Positions 5,728 to 26,700 are shown, counted from the first letter of the stretch. The stretch is DNA of 64,000 nucleotides from an uncultured Gammaproteobacteria bacterium (GCA_964629685.1 CAZVTT010000003.1:86038-150037), one strand, 5' to 3'. Numbers and translations: made by a program. Notes: generated by a model from the letters alone, not told the origin.

Positions 5728-8700
5728 TTAGGGTACAATTATCGGTCGTGGCGTATTCAGCAATCGCAATCTGGGACGTTGCCATGGGAATACAGGAGCT
5801 TCATAGATAAACGAACGGTTAAGAATTATAAGAAAATCTCCATTCTTTAAAGCCCGATCAGAATCAAGCATTCCATATATTGGACTATTATAAGGAGTAC
5901 CTGTTCTCCATCGTTCATCTTCTGGCATCACGATTTCTTGAAACCCAGTTACAATCTTAATTTTATCCCCTTCCAGGAAAATATTATTATCCTTATGAAA
6001 GATACGGATAGTTTGCTTAAATAAACCATTCGTAATAACCACCTCATTTTTTTCTAGACTCACAATTCTGGGTTCAACTTTTACACCGGGTATAAATCGT
6101 ATACTATCAAGCGTGGTATAGAGCTGAAGCACTGACAAAGAATTTACCCGCCGCATTGCGAGGTTTAACCTATTGATAGCTAAAGTCCATCGGCTATATG
6201 GTAAATATCGTTGAGTCATTCCATCTGCCTTTCGTAGTACTGCCTCAAGAATATTTTCAGTAGCAATAACAGTAATAGCAACATGCGGTTGCGTCGATGC
6301 CATACCTACGACAAATAGATCATGGAACGAAAGAAGTAAGCGATCCCACGGGACAACTGGTGGTTCGATAATAGGCTTTTCTTCCGGTATGGCGGGCGCT
6401 GTCTCAGATGTATTAACGGTCTCCATTCGTGTTCGGAAAAAACGCAGCACGCCTCGCCAAAACATCTGCCAACCGTCGTTCGCGATTATAGTACTAATCG
6501 ATCGATCTCCCATTCTTCCATCCGGCACCGCGCGAACCTCAGGTTCACCGATACGTATTACGGGTTCGGTAGGAACCAATTCCGGTCGGACATTTTGCTG
6601 ATAATACGCCAGAGCTTCTGCATACGTACCGAATTTTTCTTCACCCAACAATCGGATATACGTTTGCAGCACCTCAGGAATACCTGGCATATATGTTCTG
6701 TTGGACGCATCTGTGGTCGTTATTTTTTGAATCATGAATTCCCCGACTGCCTTAACTAAAATTCGGGATTTTCCGGAACTCACCCGGGATGCACTATTTA
6801 AGTCTCCTACTTTTGCCCGGATCACTTTACCGGTTACTTTATCGGTAAAAATAAACGTATTTACGTCTCGCACGTCATCAACTGAATAGCCCTTTTGTTC
6901 CGCTTCGACCAAACCAGCGAACAGACCATCCAGGATGGTCACCAATGTGGTATATTCCTTCCTGGCTGCTTCTTCCGCAATAACCCCGGTATAATCAGAA
7001 GCATCACCATCTGCAAGTTCCAAAAGCAGTACCGGAAACCCATTTATTTTTCCCTGATCAAGCATCGTCAGTAAAGACTCCTGTCCGGCAAGAGCCTGAT
7101 ATACCGCTATCTCTTTTTCCGTCGCTGCTGCGCGGGCGATGCTGGGGATCTTCACCGCAACTTCCATATCTCCTGCAGCCGTTTTCCGGATAGCCCGGTA
7201 CACCGTCGCCCCGCTACCTCCCAAAGATTCTGTCAGTCTCAATGTTTCCGAAATACCGTTTGTAGATACGAAACTCACATCAACCTGTTTCCCGTCTTTT
7301 AAATACCCGGTGATAAAATTGGTTATGGACTTATCCGTTATCGACTGATCAAACGAAACTACCTGCGTCTGGTTTTCCCGCACCTCTTCCTGTTCAACAT
7401 TCAAATCCGGTTGATACACCTCATCGGCAGTAAAAACTGCCGAATATGCAACACGTACAGGCATCTGCCAGAGATCATTTTCAATAAAATCCGCAGCAAG
7501 CCGGACCGGTTCACGCACGTACCCGGGAAGTGCACAAGCCGCATTGGCCCCGTCTGCGGCATATACCTGACGTATACCGGGAACCAACGAACTACAATTC
7601 TCTTCCGCGACCAACCAGGCCTGCAGTCTCCGTGCAAACGGAATCGCTATCCGGTCGCGTGCCAATTCTTCGATTGGGAAATACGCCTGTTCCGGCTCTT
7701 CCACCTCGGGGGCAGCTACCGGTTCAACCGGTACTTCCGGCTGCTCTGCCTGAACCTGCGGGGATAAATGAATTCTGAAGAAACGCTGTGGAAAATCCGG
7801 ACCGAAATGCTGCGTCGTGCGTTCTTCGCGTTCAATAACTCCTCTCCGGCTGTACATCCGGGATAGTGCTTCTGCGAGTGTTTGTTTATTGGTTCCGGTA
7901 AGATAGTCTGCAGCATGCGTTTCCACATGGGTATAACCACGCGCCACTAACTCTTTCTCCAGCACCTTAAGCATCCTGACAAATCCGGTTCCCGAAAAGC
8001 GCTGATCAAATACGGTAGAAGAAATATATGCCGTATCAGCTGATTGTTTATTCGCATAAATATATCCGATTACCTTAGCTCTTCCGTTTTCTTCAACCGT
8101 CTGCACGATCACAATGTTCTGCGGATTATTAAAATCCGCTTTCAACTGTGCTTCCGTATACCCCAGGTTAGCATTGCCGAAATTAAATCCCTGTTGCTCC
8201 AGTGCAAGCACATCCTCCCGTAAACCGGGGACTAAAGTCCAGGGATCACCATCCCATGTTGCCGGATTAAGTACTATTGTACCCACAGGAAACACCGGAA
8301 TATCGGTACTGTCAGGGGCCTGTTCTCCGGCAGCTACAGCCAATACCCGCTTGGCATTCCGGGATAACGGACGGGCAGATCTAATGGTATATCTATACCG
8401 CGGATGGAACGTTTCTTCTTCTATGGCAACTTGCTGTGCTTCAGGGGCAGCATACGTAGAAAGAATATACGCTTCAAACCCTGGCCGGTTCGATAATCCG
8501 CCGGCTTCGGTAGTAATATACAGTTCAAAACCCAGTGCTTTTGTAATTTTGTACAATGCCAGCATCGTTTGATCTATAAACTGTTCCTTTTTCTCAATTG
8601 TCAGCTGGCCTACAAAAGAAGTCGACGGATCAAATCCTATCATTACAAGCTTTTTATCCTGAATTGAGAACAAAACATCTCCGACCAACTCGCCATCAAC

Positions 8701-11700
8701 TATCATCCGGGCCATAGCCACGGAATCACGGGCCATGTCGTACGGAAAGTTTCCAAAGCATGTTCCGGAACAATTTCCCTGAAACAGATCCAGAAAATTC
8801 TTTGGTCCCAGTACTATTTCTACTGTTTTCTGATTCCGCACCGACTGGGTTCTGTTTACTGTTAACGCTTCTTTTATACCGGTAAATACGCGCCACTGTT
8901 CCGTACGGGTTACTCTCCCCTGCAAACTCTCTAATCCCATACCGCGGAGTACGTGCTGCAGATGCGTCGTAAGATCCGAAAGTTCGTTGTACAGTTCATT
9001 TCGCTCAGTAACCGGAAGTGACCCGCTTAAATACAGCCGGACGCGTTCCAATTGAATTTGGGCTAGTACCTGATTCACAATACGGAAGACAACGTCTTCA
9101 GGTACGGCAATTCTACCCAGTATATATCCCTGCATTCGTCCGACCGGATCGGCATCAGCCCGCATTCCTTTCAGAATATTTTCCGGAATTTTTTCCGTTA
9201 CATATTCTTCGTTTATCCCGTCGGCATTTACGTTCTGGAACACCTCTTCCACTTCCGCATGTAATGCTTCAATACCCGTGTTATCCTGGGTGGCCAAAGC
9301 AGTATTTAATACATCCTTCAGTTGTCCTTCAATTTCCGGAGGAAGTTCAAACAGCACGTCTTCCGTGGAAAATCCGAATGTTTCCGTAACGGTCCTTGCT
9401 ATACCGCGGGTTGTTATCTTCCCGTCTATATCCCGTATTACCTGAGGCGCGGAACGATTTTCCATCGGAACGGCAAGACGTTTGGCTATATCTTCCAAGT
9501 CACGGGTAAAATTAGAATCTACCCGTTGGATGTATACCGGATAAAATGCATATTGCTGCGGCGTCAGTGGAGTCCCGGAATGTATCCTCTGGGTAAAACT
9601 GTCATAAGAGTTACTACTTTCTGCCGCTATATTCCCAATGAGTTGCCTCCGGGTTTCCCTGTTCTGTTCATCCTGTAATTCGGGAGATAATACTAACGCA
9701 TTCAAATAGACCCCTGCCCGCTGATCTATGGCTAAGTCCGGCCTGACAGATAACAATTCCAGGAAGAGCGCCTTTTCCTCCGAAGTCATTTTTGCCGGGA
9801 GACCGAATTGCGAAAAGTAATATACGGCGTCAGGGTCATTCGGTGTCGGATAAATACCCCGGATTAACCGGGTAAGCTTAGTTACCGCCTGCGGAGACTG
9901 TTTTACTAATTCCGTAATCGCCCGCCCCTGCAACCGCAAGCGAATTTCACGGACGGTTTCCAACGGATACGACGTAATCAATTTCAACGCGAATGATGCA
10001 TCGTCATCTATCACCCATTGCGGGAGTAACACCTCATTTGTCGTGGCCTGTAACCTGTGCAGATAAGCTCTCCGGACAATTTGAGCATTTCCGGTTACGT
10101 CACGGGGATTTTCACGGATAGCTCCCAATTCAGTGCCGTCCACCACCGGTGCTATAACGGAAATCAATACCGGGTCAGCATAATCCAGTGCATGAGCCTG
10201 ACTGCTGATATATGCGGCATACTCAAGTGTGGCAGTCTCCTGATCTATTATGGCTGAAAACAACAATATCTGCTGTAGACCGTCAGCTTCATCATACTCT
10301 GAAGATCTACTGGCCAGCCGTTCGATCAGATACCCTGAAGCTTTGGTTAACACTATTTCCGGTCTGGTTACCAGCAACTGCAGGGCAATCAATCGCTCAG
10401 CTTCTCCCAGCTGTTCCGGGAACGTAATTTCCTGCCGCAGTTGTTCTGCCGTGGAAAGCGGATTCACCAATACCGATACTTTATTTACTAAAGCTGCCTG
10501 TTTGTCGGGATTGCTTTCCGCAAGAGCAACGATAGCCGGCTGACGCAGAAGTTGCCCTGCCTGACGCAAAGCTTCTACCGGAAGTGTTTGTACCATCCGG
10601 ACGGTGGCAAATGAATCCGCGCGTACCGCCCAGTCAGGTAGAATTTCTTCCCCCAGATACGCATTCAATTCACGGAAATATGCATGCTTCAACGCCGTCT
10701 GCTTGTCATAGGGTTTGGCATTGGAACCAAGAGATGCAAACTCATCCGCACTCAGAAGGGCTTTCATCATCGGGTCATCCAGATAGGTTACCCGGTAATT
10801 ACTGGTATTACGCATTAAAAAATTCAGAATATCTAACTTGGTAAACAGTCCTTCGGCCATCATAGACTGAAGTTCCGCAAATGCTCTGGTTGCAAGCTCG
10901 GCATTTTCCCGGTAACTGATCATTTTGAAGAAGCTCCCCTCAATAGACTCTCGGTAAGCCGTATCCGTGTCATATCCTGTGGCAAAACTCATGAACTCCG
11001 CTGTCGGAATTGTGGCTTCAGGGCCGATTGTCTGTTGCATCAGCTCACGCATGAGCCGGGTGGTGGCCTTCCCGTTCACGATATAATCCGGCAAATACTC
11101 GATATGTGCCAGAATGTATGCTCTAACACTCGGAGGTGCGTCAACAAATGCAGGTGCGTAAATCCGCACGATATCGGCATAGGAAATATCTTCCGGATCT
11201 TTTTCAAATAGTGTCAACAGATACTCCAACTGTTCGGACGATTCATTCCCCTCTTCACCGCGCACGCGGATCGATTCCGGTCGCTCCATCGAAAACGTAT
11301 TTATTGCCGTAACGGTTCGCAGATATTGCGCTTCCGGAATTCTGCTCAGTTGTCGGGAAGCAGCTTGCAACCGCGGACTCCGCATCAGCGACTGGAGTGA
11401 TACCTGAATTCCCAGTTGATGTAGCCGGTCCATATCATCCATTACATAGGGATGGCGGACAAAAAACCACAGCGTTTGCGGGGTAACGGACTTAAAATAG
11501 TTTAAGGTAATCTTCGTAGCTTTAAGGAAAAGCAGATACGTTACTTCCTTAACCTCGGCAGTAATCAGTGAGGGTTCGTTCTGTTCAATGTGTGAAACGA
11601 CTTCATTCACCCGCCGGACACCCAGCAACCTGAGCATCGCTTCCAGATAAAATCTCCCGCGGCGATCTGCCAGATTTTTCGGATTGGGAGTGATAGACTG

Positions 11701-14700
11701 CGTGGATCTATTGTAACTCCGTACGGAATGCCTGCTGGCCAGATTACCGATAATTCCGGAACCGTCTACCCCCTCGGGTGGAGGAACCGGTACCGGTACC
11801 TGATTCGGCATCAGGTATGTCGGCAAGGTAAACAGATATTTAAATGGTAGCCATGCTAATCCGTTTATTCCGGCTGCCACTCCGTGTATGGTTTTGACCG
11901 CGCTGTTATTGGGAAATATTTTTGTTCCCAACCAGGTAACCCGTTCAATAACAGTGGTAAATGCTACCACTTTAAGATATTCCGGATTGGCAAACGGAAC
12001 CATGCTCGGCAACGACGTTATATCATCCGGGGAATCCTGATTTGTACTCAATATCCGTTCTAACGGATGAAGCTTTTTCGTAGGATCAATATGCTGTACA
12101 TATTGTTGAATTTGTTTTGCAGTGAGTGACTCGAGTAATACTGCCGCATCTTTACCATTAGCCGTGGTTTTATATATCTTGATGACGGGACTAATACTTC
12201 CCTTCCTCACTTCATATCGGATTCCCAATTTGTCGAGTAACGGTAAAATTTGGTACACATCCTGTATTGGAGAGAAATTCTGCTTACGGATCTGGGAATT
12301 ATATCCGATCACCGGCTGTTCCGAGCCTTCTTTTCCCTCGGATAACTGAAATATAAAATATCCGTCTTTCGACAACACCTGCATCACGCCACTAATTTGC
12401 CGGATTAAATCCTGTGCATCCGGTGAATAATGCTGAAAGTTAATTCCGATAGCCATAGCCACATCAACTGTCCCGGGCTCTACTACCGTATGGGCTTGTT
12501 CTGCAGTAACGCCATGAATTCTATCCTCAATGTGAAGTAATTTATGAGATACGATTGCCTCCTGTGCCTGTATATCATCAGGATATTGGTATGAAGGCTC
12601 CAAACCGGCTACTACCGTATATCCTTCGCGATCCAGATCGCGCACCGCTGCTCCCATGCCTACGCCAACTTCCATAATCCGCCGGGTATTCGTTTTCCAA
12701 TCGGTGAGTTCATCATCCGTCACACCCAACATAGCTTGGCCTGTTTGGTCAGGGTAATGCACGCCGTCAAGAGAAGGACTGCTGGTAAAAAATGGTCTTC
12801 CGGTTACCATCCACGGGGCTCGTTCACTGTTTGACTCTTCCCGAAGAAATACCGGTAATGCGGCAATGAGGCTATCCAAATCGTCTTGAGGAACTATTGC
12901 TACAGGTAAACCGAGAAGATATGGATGTGCCGGGAGTGCCTGAGCTTGCGACTGTTGTTCTAGATTTTGTTGCTGTTGGCCTATAAATGCCACTTCTGCA
13001 AATAATGTTGGGATGGAAACGTGTACGGGTATAGAACCTTTACTGGTTATTAGATACCCTTCATACACTCGTTCATGTGTCCTGCTAGCACCGGTTAACA
13101 ACAGTTTAACTGGCTGATTCCCCTCGGCATCAGTTAATACAACTTCGACTTCTTCCCCATTCTGGACTCGGGAACGTATGTCTCTAATGGAAACAATACT
13201 GGCCGTAATCTGCTCCGGCGTTGATTTGTTCTGTTGAGAATTTATTGACTCAGATTGTGGTTGTATTTGATCGTTAATACCATCAACTGGTTCGTCCTCA
13301 GTTGTAGAGGAAGCGTCGGGCATTGTTTGCACTATCGTTCTCCCTAACCACAAAACCGGTGCCTGCCAGAGCGCGGTATCAGCAATTTCCACACCGTCTT
13401 CCAGTACTTTCCTGGCTGCTCCGGGAAGGGCACACTGCCCGCCGGTTGTTCCCCCATCCGCCGCAAACACCGGCCGTAACAATCTCATACCGGTACCGCA
13501 ACGATTATTCTGATCATCAAGCCATTCCTTAACACCTTCAGTCGCGTCGAGAACAATCTCCTGAGCTGCCGTTTCAACAGGGAGATACGTTTCGGCCTGA
13601 GAGTCTGCGTTACTGCTCTGAGCTTCCTGCGATGGTTCGACCTGTACCCTGCTTAATGTTACCCGGCCATTGTCAGTCGGATCTGCATACACCCAAAACG
13701 TATTTGTACCGATGGTAATAAAGTCACCACGGTGTACAGTTCTGATTTCATAATACGGGACAACCTTATCATTTATTGAAAATATGGCTGAGGCTATCAC
13801 ATTTTGTACCGCCAGTGTCTCATCATCAATCCGCCGGACTTCCAGCCGGATACCCCTGGAATAAGTACCGGGTAATAACAAAACATCAGGTACATCATCA
13901 GGCGTATACGTCCCAACGGTTACGGTTTGATTCTCCGGAATATTCAAAGTAAACAATTTCTGGCGTACCAGTTGCGATCGCCGAAGTGACGTCAGAGACC
14001 GTGCCGGCAACACTGTCTTTGCTTCATATTGTGACCGGAAATATTTATACGTAGCTATCGTCTTTAATACCTGTGCGTGATATTCATAGTCGTTTCCGAT
14101 ATATGAGTCTTTACTTTTTATCCACCGATTGTATTCGCTTATCCATTGCGCAATCTGTGCATCCTCAGGATTGGCTTGCATCAATGTATTGAGATACTCA
14201 GCGTACCGTCCCAACAAGGTCGCGGTAGTATCAATATTAGAATTCCCGCGCGATAACGCCAATAAATAATGTGCCCCTTCTTCCAGTCCCATCAAAAAAT
14301 ACTCCCTGGCTTGAGTGGTTATGGTTGAAGTATGCGCTTCGGGGGCTGACTGTTTTTGTGTTCTCCGTGAAGTTAATGCCAGGCTAATTGCCTGACTAGC
14401 TAAGTCTGTACCGTAATAGCCGATATATGGTTCACCCATAAACTCATCCGGAACCGATGAGTAGTACCCGAAAGCATCAACAAACGTTGCCCGAAAATTG
14501 TGTATTTGTGCCTGTGTAGCAGCTGTATACAATCTCCCGGAAGTAATCAATACCGGGAAATTCAACGCATCTCCTCCATTTTGTTTTGTGGCTAAGCCGG
14601 GAAAACTTCCGAAACTGAATTGCATACCAAGTTCCGTATATGCCATCAGTTCTGCAGCAGCTGAATAAACTTTCTGCTTTCGCAGGGAAATTCCGGTCTT

Positions 14701-17700
14701 CTTTATTTCCGCGTCTATATCGTCTTTAATGGGTGACTTCGCAATGAAATCCATATAGTAGGCTTTACGAAGACCAATATAATGCTCAACATACTGATCA
14801 AACTCTGCAGCAGTTTTAAAGTCTCCAAGCGTTGGTCTCTTCTCCACGGGAACAACAGTAAATGTTGACGCAGCAACCAGTTGGGTTACTTTTTCCTGAA
14901 CCTCTTGTCCCAACCAGTTCTTCCGCACACGGATTACTGTCTCAATTCCTTTCTTTCGATGAGTAAAGGATTGTTCTCCCTCCGGGTATATCATGTTTAA
15001 TTTCTCCGCTAATGCACTTTCTGAATCCGCCGCGGTTACGATTACCTGTAATAACGGGTGACCGATGCTGCTCGGCACATTTCCAGCCCAGGTATAGTCA
15101 ACAGCTATATACCTATTCCCTACCTGATACACCTGGCGGAGCAAAGCTGTATTCGACTCTCCGACCGGTGCATCTGAGAGAATCAACGGAAGATGTTGCG
15201 CAGTGAATGGATCTAACTCACCGAAACTGAACACATTTTTCACATCTCCTACCAATGGTTTTATCTGGTGAACCTGGACAATAGTTTTGAGCTTTCCTTC
15301 CCGCTCGCGGAGTTGGCGTTGGAATTTAATCCGCCAGTCGTTTACGATACTCCGGTTCATGCGGTACACACGAATTGCAGCCAGGTATATTCTCGGATTT
15401 ATCCAGTCACGTAACGGATACGTTTTGAATATATTTGAGAGACGCTGTTGCAACAAGAACGGATAGAATTGGGGAATCGTTTCCGTTTGTAACGTCGCAT
15501 TAGCTCGCTCTATAGCAGCAGCAATACGCTGCTGCAGTCTGATGGCTGCTTTGTACTGTTCCTGAATACCGTTCGGCAGTATCCGCACGTACCACGGTAA
15601 CACCGGTTCAACCACAACCGGTTGTGATACCGCCACCTTCTGCGTGGTTTGTACCTCGGCGTTTACTGCCTCTGTTTGGCTAAGTTCTGTTTCCGGTTTG
15701 GTTTGCTGTTGCTCAGGTTGAGCGGGAGAAGCCGAAACCGATACGGTTCTGAGCACCCACAACGCCGGAGCCTGACCGATAAATTCGCGGGCAGGATACA
15801 ACAACCTTCCCAGCAGACTGCACCCTCTCCCCGATTGGTCCGCTGCGTATGCCTGAGGTACCAATCGGAATGCCGCACCGGCACAATCTTCAGTTACATC
15901 ATCTACCCACTCATCCGTGGTTTCATCCCAACCCGGTGCGGCAGCAATCGGCTCAAACGCTTCCGGATGGTACATCCATTCATAATAGATATCCCGCATG
16001 TCTCCGGGGTTTAATGTCGGGTCAGATATCGCTATCCGATAAATTTGCTCACGGGTAAGATCGGGATTTTTCCGTCTGGCTTCATCTATGACATACTCAC
16101 GCAGAAAAAATTCCAGTTCTTCGTCTGCACGCGGTGTAAAATATGATTCGTAGCTCAATGGTCCATCGGGAAATCCGGCCGTATACCCCGAAATAAATTC
16201 GTCCTGATCATAATAGAAGGCCAGCAAGTCAGGTATCACCCCATATTCCCATGCAGGCAAAATTATACCGCGACTGTTAAGTAATGCCCGGGCATACGTA
16301 TCGGCAATGCCGGCAGTACCGCGTTCATACGGCATCATGTTAATTAATAAATAGTATGATTCCGCAACTGCCCGCTGTATTTCCGCTTCATCAGCAGATG
16401 TTCTGACTATTGTTAACAGTTCCTGTAAACGTTCGTACACCACCTGCTGTTCCGCTTCCGTAAAATACAGATGATATATTTCGTTGCCGATCATGCTACC
16501 CGGATTATCCGTACGGACCAAAATACGCTGTGCCAGAATACTGACTCCCTTAACGGTAATCCGGTGTTCATACACAGTGACGTTGGGTGATTTCGGATCT
16601 GGTGTCCCTTTTTCCTGAAACCAGGGTCGGGAAAACGAATACATCAATTTGGAATCCCACCAATCAAAATCCGTCGTTTGCAAAGACGTGGTTAACGAAT
16701 CATCCCGCTCTCGTCCGAAGGCAGCATCCGTTTCTTCTACGCCGGCTTTCCTGGCAGCGACCAACGCCTGTAAAATATCCTGTGGAGTAAGCGTTTCATC
16801 GTCCCTGATTGGTGCTTTCAGCGTATCGATAGCTTCAGCCAGCGGTAGGGCAAATTTCGGATTAAAGCCACCGAATCTCCTATCACGCAGCACTACATTC
16901 GTCCAGGGATAATCCGGTGCCCGGCCACCATGCTCCCGGATATATGCTGCCATCTTTTCCACTTCCCTGTCCCAGATCATTTGGATTAATTCTTTTGTCC
17001 AGGTGTTATCTTCTCTCCGTACTGCACCGAGATACACGGTCATAAAATCACCGGTACTGATCATCTTCTGTTGATCCTCTTCGGAAAGACTGTTCCAAAA
17101 ATCCTTCCATGATTTTCCGGAGGATTGCGGTTGGGGTAACTGCGGAGCAGGCTCCGTATCCGGCCGGATCACATCCAGAACAGCCTCCCCTTCGTGTACC
17201 AAATCGGACCACAGGGTATCTGCCGGTACATTCGTACCAGGATACCGTTCATTTATAATGGTAGAAATATCTGTTTGTCCTGTTAGATAGGCATCGATAA
17301 CGTCTAACATTTGTTTGTAACTTTCTTCTGTTAACATATCGAGCATGTCCGTATATCCCTGTGTTCTGATATTCTGTCCGACATTGCGGATACGGTACGC
17401 CTGCTTAAATTGTTCAAGTGAAACAGGAGTTGGAGCTCCATTGGCATACGCAGCGTTCCTAAATTCCAAAAACGCCAACAGAACATTACCGCCATGCTGT
17501 ACTATCCACGTCTCTACACCTATGCCACCCAATCCATGTTGATCAGCCGATTTATAAACATTTCCTTCTTTTAAAATCAATTTTGCTAAAACTATATTGG
17601 CCAGTACCGTTTCCCGATGTTGTGTGCCGATTAACGGATCTCCTGCTTGTTGTTCAATCGCTTGTAGTTTCTTTTCAATTACCTGACTGGGAGTAATCAA

Positions 17701-20700
17701 ACTATCCGAACCCTTTATAAATATTCCCAGGTCGAAATCCACCGCTTGATCATTGACTGTCGCACCGGTAACCCGGATTTGCACATATCCGGTGCCGTTA
17801 TCTATTACCGTCAGATTCGCACCTGCATCCAACCGGTTCCGGATGTTATTGGCAAGAGTAGTCGCTTTTTTGAAATCAGCACTATTTACAGACAAATGAA
17901 AATCGTAGTCGGCATCACCCGGTACGTGAGTTTGCCTACTGGTGGAACCGGAATACAACAATGTCGCATCCAACTGACTTTGGCCTGCAACAGTTTGATA
18001 ATTCATCCCCGTATCCGTAAACGCTTGCCCGAGCAAACGAATCACTGCATCTCCGGTTACGTCAGTTTGGGTATCGCCACGCATCACCTCTTTAACCGCA
18101 TCCACATCACGGGCATGTTGCTGTCTTCTGCCGTTATGTAAAAGATCATCAATTAGTTCACCGGCAGTCGTATTTGCGGTAGTATCTTCAAACCCGATGG
18201 TATCGTTCTGGAAATACCCGATACCGGCAAAATCAGCCCGTAAATTTTCGTACTCCGTAAGGGTAAAAATAACTTTACCGGTTTGATCTGTAACAGGTAT
18301 GTACACGCCGTTAGCTGCAATGTAATATTTCAGACGGGCTAAGGCTTCATCTCGTAGATATGCATTGTCACTAATAATGAATGCACTTATATCTGACCAG
18401 GCAAATCCTGTCCGTATTCCGTATTGCTGATCCGAAAGCGTCGAAAAGTATTCGTACCGTTGCTGATCATACGGTGCCCTTGTTTGCCCGGATGTATGCT
18501 GAAACCGTTCATCCGGTTTTAGTACCAACATAATGTCTCCATACCCTTTTGCAAGAGAACCTTCCAACGCGGCCCGAAACGGATCCTGCGACTCGGAAAT
18601 ATTCGGCATTACCAAACTTAAATCCGTATCAAATGGTGTTAAATCAGAAGATGCGTCAGCACCTAACAATTCGGGAGCAGTAAATCCGTTTCTCGCAACA
18701 GATTCCAGAAATACGGAACGGAATCCTTTCAATAAATCGCCAGGCCGAATATCTACATACTGTTCGCCTTTATCGTTTTCCCGGAGCTGTGCCGTATTCC
18801 GCTCAGTAGATTGTGCTTTAATTTGTGCAATATCCTGCAACATGTCCGCAAGCGACGCGTAACCTAACGGATACAGGAATTGCTGACCGTACCATTCCGT
18901 AACTGATTGCCCATCCGATATTTCCAGTGCAGAACGTAGTTGTGCTAATTTTGACTGCACATCTGAACGGAGTGTTTCTGCGGTTACACTTCCCTGCTCC
19001 GGCAAGAGTGAACTATTTATAATCGTAATTAATCTATTCAGGGTAATATTCGCCTGCGTAAGTTCTTCTTGTGTAAGTTGTTCGCCCGATTCCATCCGAT
19101 GCAGCAACTGCTCTCCCGAAGCTAATTCACGGATAAATTGCACGAATGTCCACGACCCGCCGCGTAAATGGATGCGCAGTAAATCAGTATAAATAATTGC
19201 CCGTGCAATCCTATCTTGTCCAACTGCCCGCTGCAAAACCGGAGAAGAAAAATCATATGTATTTTCCCGCAGTCTCTCCGCAGGATACAAAATATCAAAT
19301 ACCCGGTATATCTTTCCCATCGTGGGAAGATTGTTAAACGCAAACACGGCAAATATTTTATTGTACGTTTCCCGTGGAGACGGTGTCTGTAATATTTGCG
19401 CAAATATTTCCAATTTCGCCCGTTGTATCTCCGGTAAAGGAGAGTTAACCAGGTCCAAAAACACATCCACATTAGCCATTAAAACCGATTTATTTATCCT
19501 CATCATCACCGGCGCCAACTGTTCCATTTCCTGGGTGCGCAATCCAAACATGGCATCCCAGAATTGACGTTCTGCCACCGGCAACGTTGCAAGTACTTCC
19601 GCATTCATCACTTCATTGACCGGCGGCAACACGGTGTAATGAGCGAGTTCAATGAGCAGACCGGGATTCAAACTCTCGGGACGATCAACGACAATCGCGT
19701 TATTCCGGATGAGCGGTAATATTTCAGCCTGATGTGTTAGGAAAAAATAGCGGCGCTCGTACTCTAACGGACTATCGACGACTTCTCTGCGATAGAATTG
19801 CCAGAATATCAGCTCGTTTCCGGTAAATTGGTTTACCACTTCTTCCGTCAGATATGCATCCAGTAATTCGGTATACCGACTAACTTCCGCCGGATTCCTA
19901 CGGATGGATTCATCGATTGCCCGCACAAAAGCTATTGGCGTTACTCCATCTATGGGGAATTCGGAAACCCCGCGGGCCCTTAACTCGACCAACGCCGGAC
20001 GCACATAGCCGCGTGAATTTAATACCAAATCCCAAAATATGCGGTCTGCTTCTGTCAGCGATTCGTTGCCTTCAAGCACTTCCCGAATAACGGTATCTTC
20101 GAATTGTGCTTGGTTTAACGCCAGATAGAAGGCTGGTTGTACTACCCCGTCTGTAAAAAACGCATTTACCTGACCTATATGATCATGCAAAAATTCACGT
20201 ATTTCATAAAATCTGTATACATATTCCCACATGCGTTCTGCCGCAGGTGTTAACCCAAGCGCGCGTATTTGGTCAAATGGTACTAACGTATTTACTTCCC
20301 GCCAACCATCCGGATACGCATATATTTCAGTCAAAAACGCCTCAGTAATATTCCCCTCTTCATTAAAATACGAAGTAAAGTTTTCTCTATTGGCAAACAA
20401 AAACTCCGATATATGCAGCGGTGCATCTTTCATCACTGTCCAAAATCTGCGTTCCGCATCGGGAAACGCGTTAATCATATTCTGAGAAAGTATTCTTCCG
20501 TACCACACTGAAGAAATACCGGACGATTCCAACGCGTAAAAGAATTCGGGTGTTACCGCACCATTCCGGACAAATTGTGACATTTCGGAACTATGGGTAC
20601 TGATGAACGCGAGTACTTCCCGACTGGTTATCCCCTCCGTTAATTCATCTTCCGTACTTTCCGGACGTTCCTGTAGCCTTCTCAGTAAGGTATTCAAATC

Positions 20701-23700
20701 CGCAACACGGGTGTTCGGTCTTCTCTGCCTGCCCCACAATTCCCTGGTAGTTGAAAACAGTTGTACGATTGTTTGTTGTGCTCCCTCAAGAATAGAGGGC
20801 TCCTCTAGTACTGATTGCTCCGGAGAAAACACTGGTACTAATTGGTCTGCCCGCGGCGACGGTAATGGCGTTTGCGCTTGATCCTCACGTACTGACGTAT
20901 CCTCTGCTTCGCCTTCTTCCTGAAGTAATTCACTATCCGTTTCTGCAGCTTCAGTTTCGGGAGGAACACCCGGATTTTGTTGACGTACCGGAGTAACGGA
21001 TTCGATCAATTGCGTTACTCTGTTTACGAGTGAAGGAATGAATCCCACGTTTGGCTGTTCCGGTAAGGCTATTGCCCCGGTATACCCGTTGGCTCTGGCG
21101 TACGCTTCAAGGGCAATTATTTGATACGCGAATGCTTCCTGCAGATATTGAAGTTGATCCGTTTCTCCCGGTTTTAACTCACCTTTTAGCGCTTCAAATA
21201 TCACGTTCAGCGCTAACGTATTTGCGGCGACAGCTGTGTCTACCTGTTCCGCAGTGAGTGGCCGGTGGTGTGCCGCTGCCACTTCCGCCATGGTGTTTAC
21301 CGCCTGCAGAATCACCTGATTCCCGGGTATGCCGCTTTCGGTATGTCTGCTCAAATGTTCCTGGGCCAACCTGAGCAAATCACGCATATGCTGTTCTTTG
21401 GCCGGCCCGGTAGCATCATGAATTTTCTTCAAAAGTTGATTTGCCTGACCACGGAATACCGAACATTCTTCACAACCGTTGGGGTCACCCACATCGTTTG
21501 CCTTATCTAACGCATCTTGGGCATATTGTTCTGCCTGAGTCAGACGGGCTTCAGGGTTCACCACCTCGCGTATCGCTTCCAGTATCGTTTTTAACGGAAC
21601 CTGCTCTTCGTTCGTCAATCGGCGGATGTCAGTATTCACCCGGTTTAAATCTCCTACCAATTCATCAAACTGTGCCGTATTTAACGTCAGATCATATATC
21701 TGTGCGTCGGCGTCTATGGTCGTCACCGCCGTAGTCCGTACCGGTTGAATCCGTTCTCCGGCCAACAACGTATTTAATCTGGCGAGCAATCCCAACACAT
21801 AAATCCGCTGTGGTATTTCGTGATGCAGATGCGATACCCATTGTGCCTGTGTTTTTATGTCTCCGGCTGCTTCCGATTTTGCCCAGGCATCAAACGAGCC
21901 TTCCCGTTTTCCCTGCCAGGCTTCCAGAAGCCGTAAAAATACAGCCAGTGTATCTGCCCGGAAGAACGGTATGTTACGGGTTTTTATGGCTGTATATACT
22001 GCCCGGGAATATCTGTTCGCTTCCACAAACCGTAATTCCATGTATGCTCCGTCCTGTCCGGGTATACCAAATGATTTCACCGACTGTTGCGCTTCGGTAA
22101 TCTGCAGCCTTCCACCGGCTTCGCGTGAGAATCGCTGTAGGGTGCGGGTACCCTGACCGGTACCGCCGTCTTTCGTCGTCTTCCCGACATTAAAGTCACC
22201 GTTGGTAAAGTTTGCCGGTTTAAATCCTGATCCACTATCCTGAATTCCTATTACAACTTCTCCTGTATTTGGATCAATTCCGAATCGGACCGTAATTTCC
22301 ACGTCCGAACCGTTTATTTCATATGCATTCTGAATAATATTCTGGAACATAATCTGAAGCGCACTGGGTCGGAACCGAAGTTGCAACGGACGCGCAGGAG
22401 GAACTACGGTAAGTTTTATACCTTTTATCTCAGCTAGCGGCGCTACCATTTCATTTAGGAACGGTTCCAGTTCTACTTCCGCAATATCGTCTCCATTTAT
22501 ATACCTGCTCCACATATCCACCACCCTGGCAGCGGATCGGAGATTACGGTTGGCGCTTTCATACCATTTGCCATACAACTGTTCCGACATGGCATCAGGT
22601 AACGCACCCATACCGGAAAATTGTAGATACATGGACGCATATCCTTTCATACCGGCAAGCTGGTTACCCAAATCGTGACGTAATATTCCCCATGAATCGC
22701 CACCGTCTTCATCCCGCAACTGTTTTAATATTTCGAGCAATTCATCTGCCAAACGCACCACTTCGGGTCCAATCCGTGTTACCGCTTCGGTTCTTGCTGC
22801 TGTATTTGCCGGATTCTCAGGTAATTCGTCGATGAGTCCCCGCAGGTTTGTAAGATACGTATCTATCTGTTCAAACGTGGCATAAATTTTATCGACATTT
22901 CGGACTTCCGGTTCCGGCTCCGGTTCTACTAATGATTCAGTATTTGATACTTCTGTCGCGTAGCCCCACACATACACTTGCTGACCATCTACTTCTATTG
23001 GCCAGCGTACCAGACCGACAAATGCATGCGTTCCCCGCTCTATACTTTCTATTTGGGCGAGTTGGACGATTTCGTCCACCTGTCGGTTAATACTGGTAAC
23101 CCGTTGCCCCGAAACCGGATCGGTCGTTTGTCCCCACCGTCTGGCAGATGGCCGTAAATCCGTGACAGTGGCAGGGTTAACGACGACTTCACCTGCATTA
23201 ACCGTAACGCCGCCGCGTAACATGGCATACCGCGATCTGCCGTCTTCGTACAGGTCTCCCGGAAATTCAACCTGAAGTACATGAATATCTACCGGAGTAC
23301 GCTCGGCGGTCTCATCATTGGCGTTGGCATCCATAAAGGCGGTAAACCCGGTAGCTGTAGGTAGTCCGTCCGTAAACTGACTGGCCTGCGGATTTTGTAC
23401 CCACTCCACATCACCATCTGCTATGTTTCCGATATCACCCAAATGTAAAATCGTACGCGTTTGTCCGCCATTTTTCGGCTGATATTCCCAACGGATTACG
23501 TCATTGTATCCGGGAACGGCGCGGATACCTTCCGGTTCAGATTGTTGGGTAAGCGCACGGGATGTTAACGCTCTGGCGGAAAATTGTTGGGTTCCACTGG
23601 TGGTTGGCTTTGTAGTGGTTTCCGTTGTGAATGGATTTTGTTTCAAATCGGCTATGAAAGTATCCGCTTCCGAAATACGGAAATGACGCTGTGCCCGTGC

Positions 23701-26700
23701 ACGATATGCATACCCCTGTAACATAGTCCTGACCGATTCCATCATGCCGTCTCGGGTTATAAATTCTGCCAATTCCGCATTAGACGTAACACCATACGTA
23801 TGCAAAGTACGATAGATCACATAGTTAAGGTGCTCACAACCCGTTGAAGCACAAACGCGTAATAATTCTTCGTCGGAAAGATAATTGGTAATTTCCAGCA
23901 TCTGCGGTACTATATCTCCGCCTTTTTGCGCTTCCTGACCAAGCGTATCTATTACCTCTTGCAGTTCATTTGCCGTTAATTGTTCTGTACGACCTGCCCG
24001 TTGCTCCAGTTTAGTTTTCAGCTCAGATACACTCGCGGCAGGATGCAATTGTACGTCGGGATCCATGGGTAACAGTGCTAAGGTGTCATACGCGCGTGAT
24101 TGTGGATTAAAAGGTTCATCTTTAGCTGATTTAACGAAGTTATTGGCAAAGAATGTATATATTTCTTGCTCAATTACCGCTCTATTTGCCTGCTGCATGG
24201 TTTGCGCGTAGCCTTTAGTAAGTTGATCCACTGCAGCATCATATGAAGTCTGATTTATTCCCGCAGTATTCCGGTAAAATGCCAGTACGGAACCTGCCCG
24301 ATTCGCTGCTGTTTCAGACTCTGGGAACAACTGACCGAATACACTATCACGAAGCGCTGTATAGTAATCCCAATATTCCTGAGAAACGATTGTACTTACA
24401 ATATTCTCGGCTTCATCCCAGGAAACATTCCCCTGTTGTACTTCCAGGGCTACCATTAATAGCGTCGCCATTCCTTCGTTTCCTAAATCCCTAAGGTATG
24501 GACCATAAGCCCGTAACAAATCGTGAGAGGCTTCATGTGCCAGTATCCGGCGTAATAGCCTGGAGCGTTCCTCAGCAGTAAGTTCCGCATCAGCCCCGAA
24601 TATACTGGCGCGAACAACATAAACACCGGTGGCTTCATCATAGAATGCTGGGACTGCCTGACCCGGAAACTTTGTATCTATATACTGGTCATCAGCGACG
24701 ATTATCGGATAATGGGTGGGATTTATTTCTGACTGGGGTAAACGGATTTGTGCAATTGCGAGGGTATCCACTAAATTCTTCATCGAACCGACCAGCTCGC
24801 CCCGTTTGTGCAGCACTTGTAATGCGAACCATTTGTTTATGGCTTCCTGACTGGCATTGGTGAGTACACCGTTTTCGAGTGTGAGCGGATATTGTGTCGG
24901 ATTATCAAGATGCATGAGGTAATACCCTTTTACTAATCCGTAATTCTGATAGAACGGATCGGAATGGAACTGTTGCAGTACTTCTTCCCTGCCACTCTCA
25001 CCAGTTATTCTGGCTGTTTCCTGTAACTGATCAACCACAGCAGGTGCCCATTCCGGTACCACATGCGCCACGGCATCCATAGCGGTATCGGCAAATACGA
25101 CCACCGGTGCCCGCTGCACCGTATTACTAATCTGCTCACGTAAACTCAACGGACGGGATGAGCCGGGAGGATTGTTATCCGTTTGAGAATCTTCCTCACT
25201 TGGTGGTCGAACCGGATTACTCCTATTTCTTCTCCGCTCTTCTATAACTTGGGCACGTTGAATTTGTTTCGCTAATATCGCTTTTAAGCGTTCACTGAAT
25301 TCAAGTAATTCATCTTTACCGGTAAACGGAACCCGGAAACTGCGAGAACCACCCTCAACACTCGTAGTAACTTCTACACCTGCATCACGGAGTAAATTAA
25401 CCAAGAACGTTGTATCTGTTGATCCGCCGACGGATTGCGGCAACGGTCCTGTTGTAATCCATGTCATTACTTCATCCACATCCGAAAGCATCCCTTTTAA
25501 CGCGAGGATGACATTGCCAATATCAGCTTTTTCATCAGTAATACCATACACATTATTAAATCCGAAATGTAACTGGATTACTGAACCGTTTGGCGTAACA
25601 GCTCTAATGGCTGTAACCCCATTCTGAGCCACAAATCGTGATTCTGTATTCGTAGGCCTTTGCTGCCGTAATTGAAGCATAAAATCCTGACTCTCTTTGC
25701 TCACTTCTTCAACAGCCGCTGCTACTTCATACCAGACCCCACTAATCCGTGACCTGATTTCACCTACGGCAGCAGTAAGCTCATATTGCAGTTGTTCCCG
25801 TTGTATTTGAACTATATCAAACGGTGTTTCATCACCAACCGGAAGTTTTTCTACCAACTGTTGCATGAAGTACAGAGCTTCAACAAGTTGCTGCACTTCC
25901 GTTTCACTTACTTCTGCAGGAAGTGGAAATTCATCAAAATTATTCGCTACTTCAATTGCGGTTTGAATTGATCCAAGTGCTGATTCAATAAACGATGGTT
26001 TCGGTTCAATAATGGCCCTTGCTGTATTTACCTGAGCTATTAATGCTTTTTGAATCCGTTGGTTTGGCATCTGATGCTGATAGGCAACAGCGGCGGCTTT
26101 GGCTATCGCTTTTTTCGCTGATGCTAAATCTGGAGCACTTAACGCTTCATCTATAGCCGCGTTCACCTCTTTCACCGCTTTGCCACAGTCTGTGCAGGTT
26201 TGCCCGGCACTCGCTACCGTTATCGTACCAACTTGTGTAACATCCAATACATCCGTAACCACCGTGTCAGTTTTCTCTACGGATAATGCAGGAGATTGGA
26301 GTAATTGTCGTAAGACGGCTATATCAATTTCCCTTGGAGCATCGTCAGAAATGGTTGCTATCAATTGCTCGACTGCAATCTCTGCAACAGTATCTGAAGT
26401 GTCTGTTTGTACCGTAGCGGAAACCGGCTGAGTTTCACCTGTCGGTGTAAGGTATCCGGGATCGTTGGCAGTCGGCTGATGATACGTAATCGATGGACCA
26501 GACAATCTGCGGACTTCAGGGTCATTTCCGAGCAGAATTACATCGCCGTCATGCAATACTGTCGGCACCGTTATCCTGACACCATTTACCCAGGTGCCGA
26601 AACTCGAACCGGCATCCTCAATTGTTACCGTCGCACCGGTTATGGTTACCCGTGCATGTTGGGCACTACTGACCAAACCGGTACCGCTATTTTTACCGAT

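Follow-up and report, generated by a model that had tools for sequence, protein, structure and literature searches.

A two-cysteine element repeated three times between modules of a 17,564-residue bacterial protein

Pretoxin elements, such as PT-VENN (PF04829), PT-HINT (PF07591), PT-TG (PF14449) and the VENN of CdiA, are short conserved elements located right before the variable C-terminal enzymatic module of a very large, probably surface-exposed protein. MARTX toxins carry several enzyme-like effector modules in one giant exported chain with flexible linkers. In diphtheria toxin, Pseudomonas exotoxin A, Shiga toxin and clostridial neurotoxins, a disulfide loop is nicked and reduction frees the enzymatic part. 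The Cys loops are C186-C201 in diphtheria toxin, C265-C287 in exotoxin A, C242-C261 in Shiga toxin A and the one joining light and heavy chains in botulinum neurotoxin. Giant proteins also occur in bacteria such as Omnitrophota, and it has been proposed that they are cut into smaller products, at points stated to be unknown (West-Roberts et al. 2023, bioRxiv 10.1101/2023.11.21.568195).

The element described here (the junction, copies J1 to J3) resembles the pretoxin elements in preceding enzyme-like modules of a protein that is giant and probably surface-exposed. It lies in a 64-kb window, which is the whole stretch of DNA that was analysed. The reading frame and the three copies are as follows.

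5728..58422, minus strand: giant ORF of 17,564 aa, one unbroken reading frame, carrying all three junction copies
15721..15975, minus strand: J1, aa 14150-14234, Cys at aa 14180 and 14201 (nt 15820-15885); translation, alignment, HMM 92.5 bits
13315..13599, minus strand: J2, aa 14942-15036, Cys at aa 14975 and 14997 (nt 13432-13500); translation, alignment, HMM 119.3 bits
7426..7692, minus strand: J3, aa 16911-16999, Cys at aa 16943 and 16963 (nt 7534-7596); translation, alignment, HMM 103.3 bits

Gene callers choose the identical start for the 17,564-aa ORF in independent Logan assemblies. Translation placed the three copies in this one ORF where an earlier note on this DNA had located them. 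The two Cys and [YF]AAD[GQ] are common to 3 of 3 copies, with the Cys spaced by 20-22 residues. The similarity is not restricted to the residues listed in that note: the copies are about 85-95 aa long with 31-39% identity in the alignment, and their likeness starts about 25-30 residues N-terminal to the first Cys, with [YF]xP[IV]E and W[LV]xD. Invariant in all three are P, W, C, AAD, C, L, G, Q, P and R. In the Cys-Cys loop, [YF]AAD is preceded at a distance of three to six residues by one Arg or two, and the ~90-aa element contains no conserved His or Asn. The proposed consensus needed correction in its spacers (4-7 residues, not 3-4, from C to R; 4-6, not 5-7, from AAD[GQ] to C) and in the LWQxPV ascribed to every copy. 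J1, the most divergent copy, has no LWQ and reads IGQAP instead of LWQAP, as well as AADQ and LLG. A DNA pattern for [YF]AADG..C.LPG..WQ matches at J2 and J3.

The three-copy repeat is far above chance similarity. Smith-Waterman z-scores against shuffles were 20 for J2-J3, 11 for J1-J2 and 5.7 for J1-J3, with the observed score reached in 0 of 2,000 shuffles, and 0 of 1,500 real 90-aa windows of the giant protein matched any of the three observed pair scores. An HMM built from the copies matched the giant protein at exactly these three places, and relaxing the limit to E<=100 added no others.

No homologue of the junction was found in 1.84 billion representative proteins or in scans of genomes, metagenomes, viruses, plasmids and phages. 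Neither the junction, nor the 3,664 aa around the junctions, nor 1,500 aa upstream had relatives in any collection searched. The other six-frame ORFs of the window gave no match to the junction HMM, and the orphan junction-plus-domain cassettes that the earlier note had suggested looking for were found, like further junction copies, neither there nor in ~60 kb of same-organism loci (many overlapping) nor in loci taken from 80 genome assemblies, 1.3 Mb in all. The three junction segments matched no Pfam family at E<=1 and no NCBIfam family, and the best match of a PDB profile search was only at E 1.6. PT-VENN, PT-HINT and PT-TG were absent from the junctions and from the whole-protein scans, and in the literature the string YAADG occurs in unrelated contexts only. 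As far as its sequence can tell, the junction motif is undescribed, as had been claimed, and is an orphan without a described family. AF2 gave a pLDDT of 59 for J2 alone and of 42 for J3 with the kinase-like module behind it; neither model was usable.

The modules and linkers around the copies are listed below in the order of the chain.

16177..16464, minus strand: AvrB/XopAH-type (Fido) module, aa 13987-14082, ending ~70 aa before J1; Pfam PF05394 at 6.5e-9, above cut-off
15631..15720, minus strand: Q/E/T/P-rich low-complexity linker after J1, aa 14235-14264; window of low hydrophobic fraction
13687..15630, minus strand: unassigned module of ~650 aa between J1 and J2, aa 14265-14912; no significant Pfam, NCBIfam or PDB sequence match
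13600-13686, minus strand: linker before J2, aa 14913-14941; low hydrophobic fraction
13189..13314, minus strand: low-complexity linker after J2, aa 15037-15078; low hydrophobic fraction
12868..13188, minus strand: degenerate kinase N-lobe-like segment after J2, aa 15079-15185, TGASRTHERVYEG...VHVSIP; colinear with the post-J3 segment, weak
12349..12678, minus strand: weak class-I methyltransferase-like segment after J2, aa 15249-15358; Methyltransf_25 at E 0.0052, below cut-off
7915..8145, minus strand: weak GNAT-like segment before J3, aa 16760-16836; Acetyltransf_1 at E 0.0012, 19.6 bits (cut-off 20.7 bits)
7693-7770, minus strand: P/E/V-rich linker before J3, aa 16885-16910; by eye
7318..7425, minus strand: acidic, Q-rich linker after J3, aa 17000-17035; by eye
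6433..7317, minus strand: kinase-like module after J3, aa 17036-17330; motifs GGSGATVYRA, VAVKIP, DDVRDVN and VGDLN

The AvrB/XopAH-type module also matched NCBIfam NF041403 at 9.4e-12 (a partial match), and this Fido module just before J1 makes the context look effector-like. A VGVGMG motif is visible in the methyltransferase-like segment. The GNAT-like match, which had been placed behind J3, lies upstream of it, so J3 precedes the kinase-like module only. We infer the kinase-like nature of that module from its motifs; its database match was faint (APH(3') at E 0.17), with none in Pfam. J2 and J3 have a low-complexity linker at either end and J1 has one at its C-terminal end only, both J3 linkers having been read by eye below the threshold of the low-hydrophobicity linker scan. 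With such flanks the element would sit bead-like between enzyme-like modules. The earlier description of a recurring two-Cys element between modules stands. The element is not a general boundary marker: aa 13,500-17,564 hold at least nine linker-like segments, and the element occupies only 3 of ~9 boundaries.

The upstream flanks of the copies are mutually dissimilar (z about 0). The ~110 residues behind the linkers of J2 and J3 align colinearly (z 5.7 against shuffles), and in a whole-protein comparison no segment matched the one behind J3 better than the one behind J2. This likeness is suggestive only, because its score was equalled by 18 of 1,500 real windows (1.2%). Unrelated upstream and weakly similar downstream flanks together suggest that the element belongs with what follows, as the earlier note had it. 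That each copy precedes a distinct module holds for J1, behind which nothing kinase-like was found. Behind J2 and J3 the modules may differ only in part, with a kinase N-lobe-like start perhaps in common. Their colinear weak similarity fits duplication of a unit made up of the junction and the start of the next module.

Pfam scans over the whole length of the giant protein found no protease, Hint, VENN, TG or Rhs domains and no RHS/YD matches. Overlapping 760-aa tiles covering aa 1-13,760 held no match to Peptidase_C80 or another peptidase family at E<=0.1; no peptidase family matched in aa 12,901-17,564 at E<=0.01 or, in the module segments between aa 13,600 and 17,564, at E<=1. Sequence inspection revealed no DPxGL motif inside or beside the junctions. 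Apart from one M23/LysM cell-wall peptidase among the neighbouring proteins, neither the protein nor its neighbours have a detectable protease domain. A convergent 851-aa gene adjoins the ORF end at 5728, with no small immunity-like gene there.

The distribution of Cys along the chain is uneven. Residues 4300-17564 (13,265 aa) contain 18 Cys (0.14%), each with a partner within 22 residues, where about one Cys with such a neighbour would be expected by chance; random placement reproduced the full pairing in 0 of 200,000 trials. In the last 4,000 aa, 6 of the 8 Cys are those of the junction pairs, and the other pairs of the Cys-poor part are of CxxC type. The Thr/Pro-rich, Cys-rich region that follows the N-terminal anchor has 232 Cys between aa 81 and 4299, an even number. 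The anchor, at aa 62-80, is the single strong hydrophobic segment. No other convincing membrane segment was found, and after aa 80 none reaches membrane-helix strength; a region at aa 3850-4330, rich in Gly/Ala and mildly hydrophobic, lies on the border of the Cys-rich and Cys-poor parts and could cross the membrane. Even Cys counts and Cys exclusion are reportedly signatures of exported proteins (Dutton et al. 2008, PNAS; Daniels et al. 2010, JBC). Three neighbour proteins with exported-type domains (NPCBM, M23/LysM and CarboxypepD_reg, export being judged by domain type) have 0 Cys, and the cytoplasmic iPGM neighbour has 1.15%. We favour a location of the Cys-poor part outside the cell. That part also contains domains of typically cytoplasmic kinds (FHA in five copies, PP2C, weak HisKA/HATPase_c, kinase-like); if it were in the cytoplasm, the junction pairs would not be disulfides.

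We infer the junction's fold, its putative disulfide and any release role from sequence. Our preferred reading, held tentatively and at somewhat under an even chance, is a lineage-restricted inter-module domain of ~85-95 residues, probably self-folding and multiplied within one gene, with a Cys-stapled loop as latch or recognition point. Such a domain would begin with an acidic, Trp-containing and probably helical segment, continue with a 19-21-residue loop between the invariant Cys, holding one or two Arg and the [YF]AAD[GQ] turn, and end with C-x-L-[PL]-G followed by a hydrophobic stretch that includes Q-x-P and R. The staple would be a disulfide if the region is extracellular. The stapled loop would be the functional surface of the domain, perhaps a redox-sensitive latch or recognition point that marks where each of the three terminal modules begins. 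Against the domain count the low-pLDDT AF2 models, the weak J2/J3 downstream likeness, the motif residues lost in J1 and the existence of three paralogous copies only, with no orthologues found. Against an extracellular disulfide count the typically cytoplasmic domains and the possible crossing at aa 3850-4330.

These domains lend some weight to a reading that we regard as rather unlikely, in which the junction is a cytoplasmic N-terminal extension of kinase-like domains in a signalling scaffold and its Cys pair and conserved Asp bind metal or sense redox state, thereby controlling the neighbouring module. FHA, PP2C, HisKA with HATPase_c and the kinase-like module are a typical intracellular phospho-signalling set, a kinase N-lobe-like segment lies behind the J2 and J3 linkers, CxxC pairs are a common metal-binding half-site, and the Gly/Ala-rich border region could bring the chain back across the membrane. 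However, that return would have to do without a segment of membrane-helix strength, nothing kinase-like follows J1, the kinase assignment is itself weak, two Cys and one Asp make an incomplete metal site, and a seven-fold Cys depletion would be unusual for this organism's cytoplasmic proteins, to judge by iPGM. If the protein is instead exported and its terminal modules work inside another cell, a protease might nick the disulfide loop at Arg; the disulfide would keep the parts joined, and reduction in the target cytoplasm would free the downstream module. The spacing of the Cys pairs in a Cys-purged sequence, the Arg ahead of [YF]AAD, the flanking linkers and the N-terminal anchor with its Cys-rich, Thr/Pro-rich continuation are in keeping with this. 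So are modules that need ATP, SAM or acetyl-CoA, the AvrB/XopAH-type effector domain among them, and an iPGM neighbour whose closest relatives are mostly from MAGs of Patescibacteria, a group with many episymbionts. We nevertheless hold such release to be unlikely, since the only protease domain detected is that of the M23/LysM cell-wall peptidase, no translocation machinery was identified, the strictly conserved AAD suggests more than a bait loop, and most boundaries are without the element. A putative role of the junction in release or processing is possible. Its extension to serial redox-gated release points, through which a bacterium of ultra-small size and probably episymbiotic life would pass the C-terminal enzyme modules of its surface-anchored giant protein into a partner cell, is doubtful. 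A disulfide-closed, protease-sensitive loop would then precede each module, and the modules would be cut apart outside the cell and freed singly on disulfide reduction inside the target. If true, one chain would use the nick-and-reduce principle of AB toxins at three sites, and the cleavage points of a giant bacterial protein would be defined for the first time.

The copies might also be the best-kept remnant of an old duplication of a larger module, with no function of their own beyond membership of the chain. All copies are in one protein with no family outside it, J1 is visibly decaying, and the J2/J3 likeness fades gradually downstream. What makes this quite unlikely is that the Cys and their spacing, AAD, L-x-G, Q-x-P and W do not vary among copies of otherwise ~35% identity, and that these residues stay while all similarity is gone upstream of every copy and downstream of J1; six Cys kept in a Cys-purged region argue for selection. 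Very improbable is the polymorphic-toxin or cassette organisation that the earlier note had read from the repeat, in which a conserved boundary lets C-terminal modules swap with orphan cassettes. A recurring element before enzyme-like modules of such a protein and mutually unrelated upstream flanks would suit it, but we found no pretoxin domain, Rhs, Hint or other toxin-delivery hallmark, no immunity gene, no orphan copies in the same-organism sequences scanned and no relatives that would show polymorphism. The junctions are moreover internal and serial, not one boundary before one terminal toxin. No DNA-level repeat usable for recombination is common to the three copies and their protein identity is 31-39%, so they cannot support homologous recombination now.

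Compared with known systems, a domain with a Cys-stapled loop, our preferred reading, is distinct from Hint and intein-like modules, whose fold has ~130-150 aa with an N-terminal Cys or Ser and a C-terminal His-Asn, whereas the junction has ~90 aa and no Hint match. Autoproteolysis of Rhs and Tc toxins involves YD/Rhs repeats and the DPxGL aspartyl cleavage motif, neither of which was found here. Pretoxin domains occur once before the terminal toxin, and the junction three times in series within the chain; it has no sequence match to them, its copies are too diverged for recombination, and no immunity gene, orphan cassettes or polymorphism were found with it. With MARTX toxins the protein has in common a row of enzyme-like modules joined by flexible linkers in one giant chain. 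In MARTX toxins the junctions are unstructured linkers cut after Leu by an internal cysteine protease domain, Peptidase_C80, while here a conserved ~90-aa domain is predicted and no protease was detected. Like the Omnitrophota giant proteins, this one exceeds 10,000 aa, comes from an uncultivated bacterium and is mostly unannotatable; in place of the many membrane segments and the SecA-like and C39/S8 peptidase domains of those proteins it has one anchor and no such domain. As in AB toxins, two Cys 12-25 residues apart enclose a loop with basic residues, which lies where an enzymatic part meets the remainder of a Cys-poor chain. The AB-toxin loops are not conserved AAD-motif domains, and the likeness is one of functional analogy, not homology; we know of no AB toxin with three serial cleavage-loop sites in one chain. 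An AB-toxin-like nick-and-reduce loop at the junction, though unlikely, would fit the Cys spacing, the basic residues of the loop and the Cys-purged background.

The giant protein is encoded by one long ORF, in which a two-Cys element with the motif [YF]AAD[GQ], here called the junction, occurs three times (J1, J2 and J3). Their extents were taken from an alignment of the flanks.

5728..58422, minus strand: giant ORF, 17,564 codons without interruption
aa 14150-14234, minus strand: J1
aa 14942-15036, minus strand: J2
aa 16911-16999, minus strand: J3
aa 16760-16836, minus strand: weak GNAT match upstream of J3

Translation put the three peptides of the earlier note at exactly the residues and nucleotides it had assigned them, and two Cys surround [YF]AAD[GQ] in every copy. 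The consensus string proposed with them had wrong spacers, and LWQ, supposed to be common to all copies, is missing from J1. The aligned similarity starts about 25-30 residues ahead of the first Cys ([YF]xP[IV]E ... W[LV]xD) and stops at a conserved Arg past the Q-x-P motif, so that each copy comprises about 85-95 aa. With a pairwise identity of 31-39% over this length, and with P, W, C, AAD, C, L, G, Q, P and R invariant in all three copies, the likeness is not confined to the few residues listed at first. Smith-Waterman scores of the junction pairs were 20, 11 and 5.7 SD over composition-preserving shuffles, none of 2,000 shuffles reached the observed score, and 0 of 1,500 real 90-aa windows of the giant protein matched any of the three pair scores. 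The junction repeat is above chance. An HMM built from the three copies, a check that had been suggested with the motif, gave, with a cut-off as loose as E<=100, exactly three matches in the giant protein, namely J1-J3, and zero matches in the window's other six-frame ORFs.

The stretches of 200 aa that precede the copies are unrelated to one another (z about 0). J1 is preceded by an AvrB/XopAH-type Fido module (Pfam 6.5e-9; NCBIfam 9.4e-12). A GNAT-like module had been placed after J3; the GNAT match lies ahead of it, so the kinase-like module alone follows J3. The claim that a distinct module stands behind each copy may not fully hold for J2 and J3, whose downstream regions align colinearly through a linker, a short beta-rich stretch and a glycine-loop/VAVK-like stretch; the last of these is intact in the J3 case (GGSGATVYRA..VAVKIP) and has degenerated in the J2 case (TGASRTHERVYEG..VHVSIP). 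This similarity is weak (z 5.7 versus shuffles, yet 18 of 1,500 real windows equal that score); in a search of the whole protein with the J3 downstream segment, the J2 downstream segment was the best match. From these alignments, the junction plus N-lobe was likely duplicated as one unit.

Low-complexity linkers lie on both sides of J2 and of J3, and on the C-terminal side only of J1. Of the proposal that the junction is a recurring boundary element, what remains is that it probably marks where modules begin; it does not mark boundaries in general, since aa 13,500-17,564 contain at least six other linker-like segments that lack it. The sequence after the junctions shows neither a Met nor another signal pointing to internal translation starts. 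Between the methyltransferase-like and GNAT-like segments, the helical region (window 9463-10725, minus strand; aa about 15900-16320) also has an internal repeat of about 205 aa, though a weak one; aa 15911-15944 match 16116-16149 with a blastp E of 0.02, and the copies have similar PDW/PQW contexts.

No match to the junction was found in Pfam, NCBIfam or PDB sequences, and a literature search for the string YAADG gave nothing relevant. The junction repeat is real and, as the earlier note supposed, undescribed. Word-index searches gave no matches, whether the query was the junction profile, the 3,664 aa surrounding the junctions or the 1,500 aa upstream. An exhaustive HMM search of 1.84 billion representative proteins returned three repeat proteins, which are false positives, as each score adds up 7-19 stretches that reach 10 bits at most (i-Evalue above 1e4). 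As there was no self-hit, this library does not hold the giant protein, so relatives in fragmented assemblies could be missed and absence from it is not proof; no further copies, which the earlier note would seek in metagenomes and giant proteins, were found in it. Protein libraries lack the C-terminal third of the giant protein. A degenerate DNA pattern for [YF]AADG..C.LPG..WQ, which picks up J2 and J3 within the window, had 14 matches in JGI metagenomes, about the hand-estimated chance number, and 0 of the 14 scored above 15 bits with the HMM; in viral contigs it had 0 matches. Plasmids and phages searched by tblastn contained no junction match. An AADQ..C string in the N-terminal 137-aa repeats was rejected as a relative (hhalign probability 0.1%). 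AlphaFold models of J2 alone and of J3 plus the kinase-like module were of low confidence (pLDDT 59 and 42).

Logan assemblies of the four sequencing runs SRR14271333, SRR14271339, SRR14271365 and SRR14271370 carry the same locus with identical flanking proteins. Among Logan loci L001-L003, L084, L085 and L100-L103, no contig that extends into the giant gene has it whole; the N-terminal pieces measure 798, 998 and 1,829 aa and the C-terminal one 221 aa, and this terminal piece was all that was found when contigs with the downstream neighbour genes were searched for alternative C-termini. Genes flanking the giant gene are also on an NCBI contig of 155,056 bp. About 60 kb of same-organism loci, many of which overlap, and 1.3 Mb of loci taken from 80 genome assemblies contain no junction copy. 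A genome scan with aa 15036-16320 found no relative. The scan with iPGM, the product of a neighbouring gene, gave 41-53% identity, mostly to Patescibacteria MAGs, and would place the organism only roughly.

The Cys residues and the recognisable domains of the giant protein are distributed as follows.

window 45526-58182 (aa 81-4299), minus strand: Cys-rich N-terminal part with Thr/Pro/Ser-rich spacers
window 49981-53670, minus strand: tandem 137-aa repeats, at least nine copies with eight invariant Cys each
window 33343-35445 (aa 7660-8357) and 26527-26667 (aa 10586-10632), minus strand: FHA domains, five in all, up to E 6.6e-42
window 32428-33081 (aa 8448-8665), minus strand: PP2C phosphatase domain, E 9e-7
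window 32233-32244 (aa 8727), minus strand: CSRC, isolated CxxC
window 27343-27354 (aa 10357), minus strand: CSVC, isolated CxxC
window 26185-26196 (aa 10743), minus strand: CTDC, isolated CxxC
aa 11524-11529, minus strand: CASTGC, further close pair
window 22087-22365 (aa 12020-12112), minus strand: HATPase_c, E 3.3e-9
window 21463-21474 (aa 12317), minus strand: CEEC, isolated CxxC
aa 16551-16555, minus strand: CSGTC, further close pair

The Cys-rich part contains 232 Cys, an even number (about 5.5%), and its 137-aa repeats are 62-73% identical to the first copy. Pfam matches to ALP_N and CBM_21 there contain no stretch that is significant by itself and appear to be repeat artefacts. Only 18 Cys (0.14%) are found in aa 4300-17564, and none between aa 4272 and 8726. 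Each of the 18 has a close partner: there are four CxxC pairs, one Cx4C and one Cx3C, and the two Cys of J1, J2 and J3 are at distances of 21, 22 and 20 positions. Not one of 200,000 random placements was all paired, the chance expectation being about one Cys with such a neighbour. This Cys-pair pattern is a new observation. The CxxC, CASTGC and CSGTC pairs might staple the chain locally by a disulfide or form zinc-hook-like half sites. The four CxxC pairs form a second recurrent Cys element, with a Gly/Thr-rich turn before and an apparent helix after, hundreds of residues apart in sequence otherwise Cys-free.

Three neighbouring genes encode proteins with domains typical of export and no Cys, namely an NPCBM domain protein (1173-3137, plus strand), an M23/LysM peptidase (59693-60769, minus strand) and a CarboxypepD_reg protein (62478-63887, minus strand), and the cytoplasmic iPGM (60944-62506, plus strand) has 1.15% Cys, which suggests that the organism excludes Cys from exported proteins. 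Even Cys counts and Cys exclusion are reportedly recognised export signatures. The giant protein has one strong hydrophobic anchor (aa 62-80) and no other segment at membrane-helix strength. The Cys pattern, the Cys-free neighbours and the single anchor together favour an extracytoplasmic junction part, in which a disulfide would close a loop of 19-21 residues. A serious reservation is that the Cys-poor part also holds the five FHA domains, PP2C, HATPase_c beside a weak HisKA match about 90 aa upstream of it, and the kinase-like module, all usually cytoplasmic. FHA, PP2C and HisKA/HATPase_c make up a phospho-signalling set inside the giant protein. Exactly at the Cys-rich/Cys-poor border, aa 3850-4330 (window 45433-46875, minus strand) are mildly hydrophobic, with 14% Gly, 13% Ala and 0.6% Lys; this region might insert into or cross a membrane and, if so, would settle on which side the other 13,000 aa lie. 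In aa 1-8000 (window 34420-58422, minus strand) there is a strong depletion of lysine and histidine, with Lys at 0.0-1.9% against Arg at 5.6-9.5% and zero Lys in aa 1001-2000; Lys is up at 3-4% in the last 4,500 aa.

We tentatively read the junction as an orphan inter-module domain in which the Cys pair would staple the loop and whose copies would have arisen by duplication inside the giant gene. The same Cys pair could instead belong to a cytoplasmic redox- or metal-sensing head of kinase-type modules, a reading in keeping with the signalling domains and at odds with an extracytoplasmic location; we hold it unlikely, although it leads the alternatives. The J2/J3 similarity, which fades downstream, would suit a functionless remnant of an old duplication, which we consider improbable beside the residues kept in all copies. 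The polymorphic-toxin junction of the earlier note, a site of recombination between effector cassettes, agrees with the probable position at module starts. Pretoxin, Hint, Rhs, Peptidase_C80 and other protease families were undetectable anywhere in the giant protein, no immunity-like gene was found at the locus, no DNA repeats link the copies, and the orphan junction-plus-domain cassettes that had been anticipated elsewhere were absent from the window, the same-organism loci and the 80 assemblies, which makes that reading very improbable. Five short DNA repeats about 4.1-4.2 kb apart were considered as traces of a methyltransferase-like/GNAT-like duplication and are treated as chance, since the two regions show no similarity as protein (z -0.2).

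Should the junction be a mere structural bead, the result is a modest orphan-domain annotation. Known from one protein only, the junction is for now of limited general importance. What the sequence offers is three sharp candidate sites within the giant chain. Hardly anything in bacterial giant proteins is annotated, and it has yet to be settled if they are processed into functional parts, and at which positions; their cleavage points are stated to be unknown (West-Roberts et al. 2023, bioRxiv 10.1101/2023.11.21.568195). Cys-pair junctions between enzyme-like modules, in a region purged of Cys, give precise candidates that can be addressed experimentally. By analogy with AB toxins, the junction might be a nick-and-reduce release site, which a disulfide-closed loop would suit and the lack of a detectable protease family in the protein does not favour; we rank this unlikely reading after the sensing head and before the remnant.
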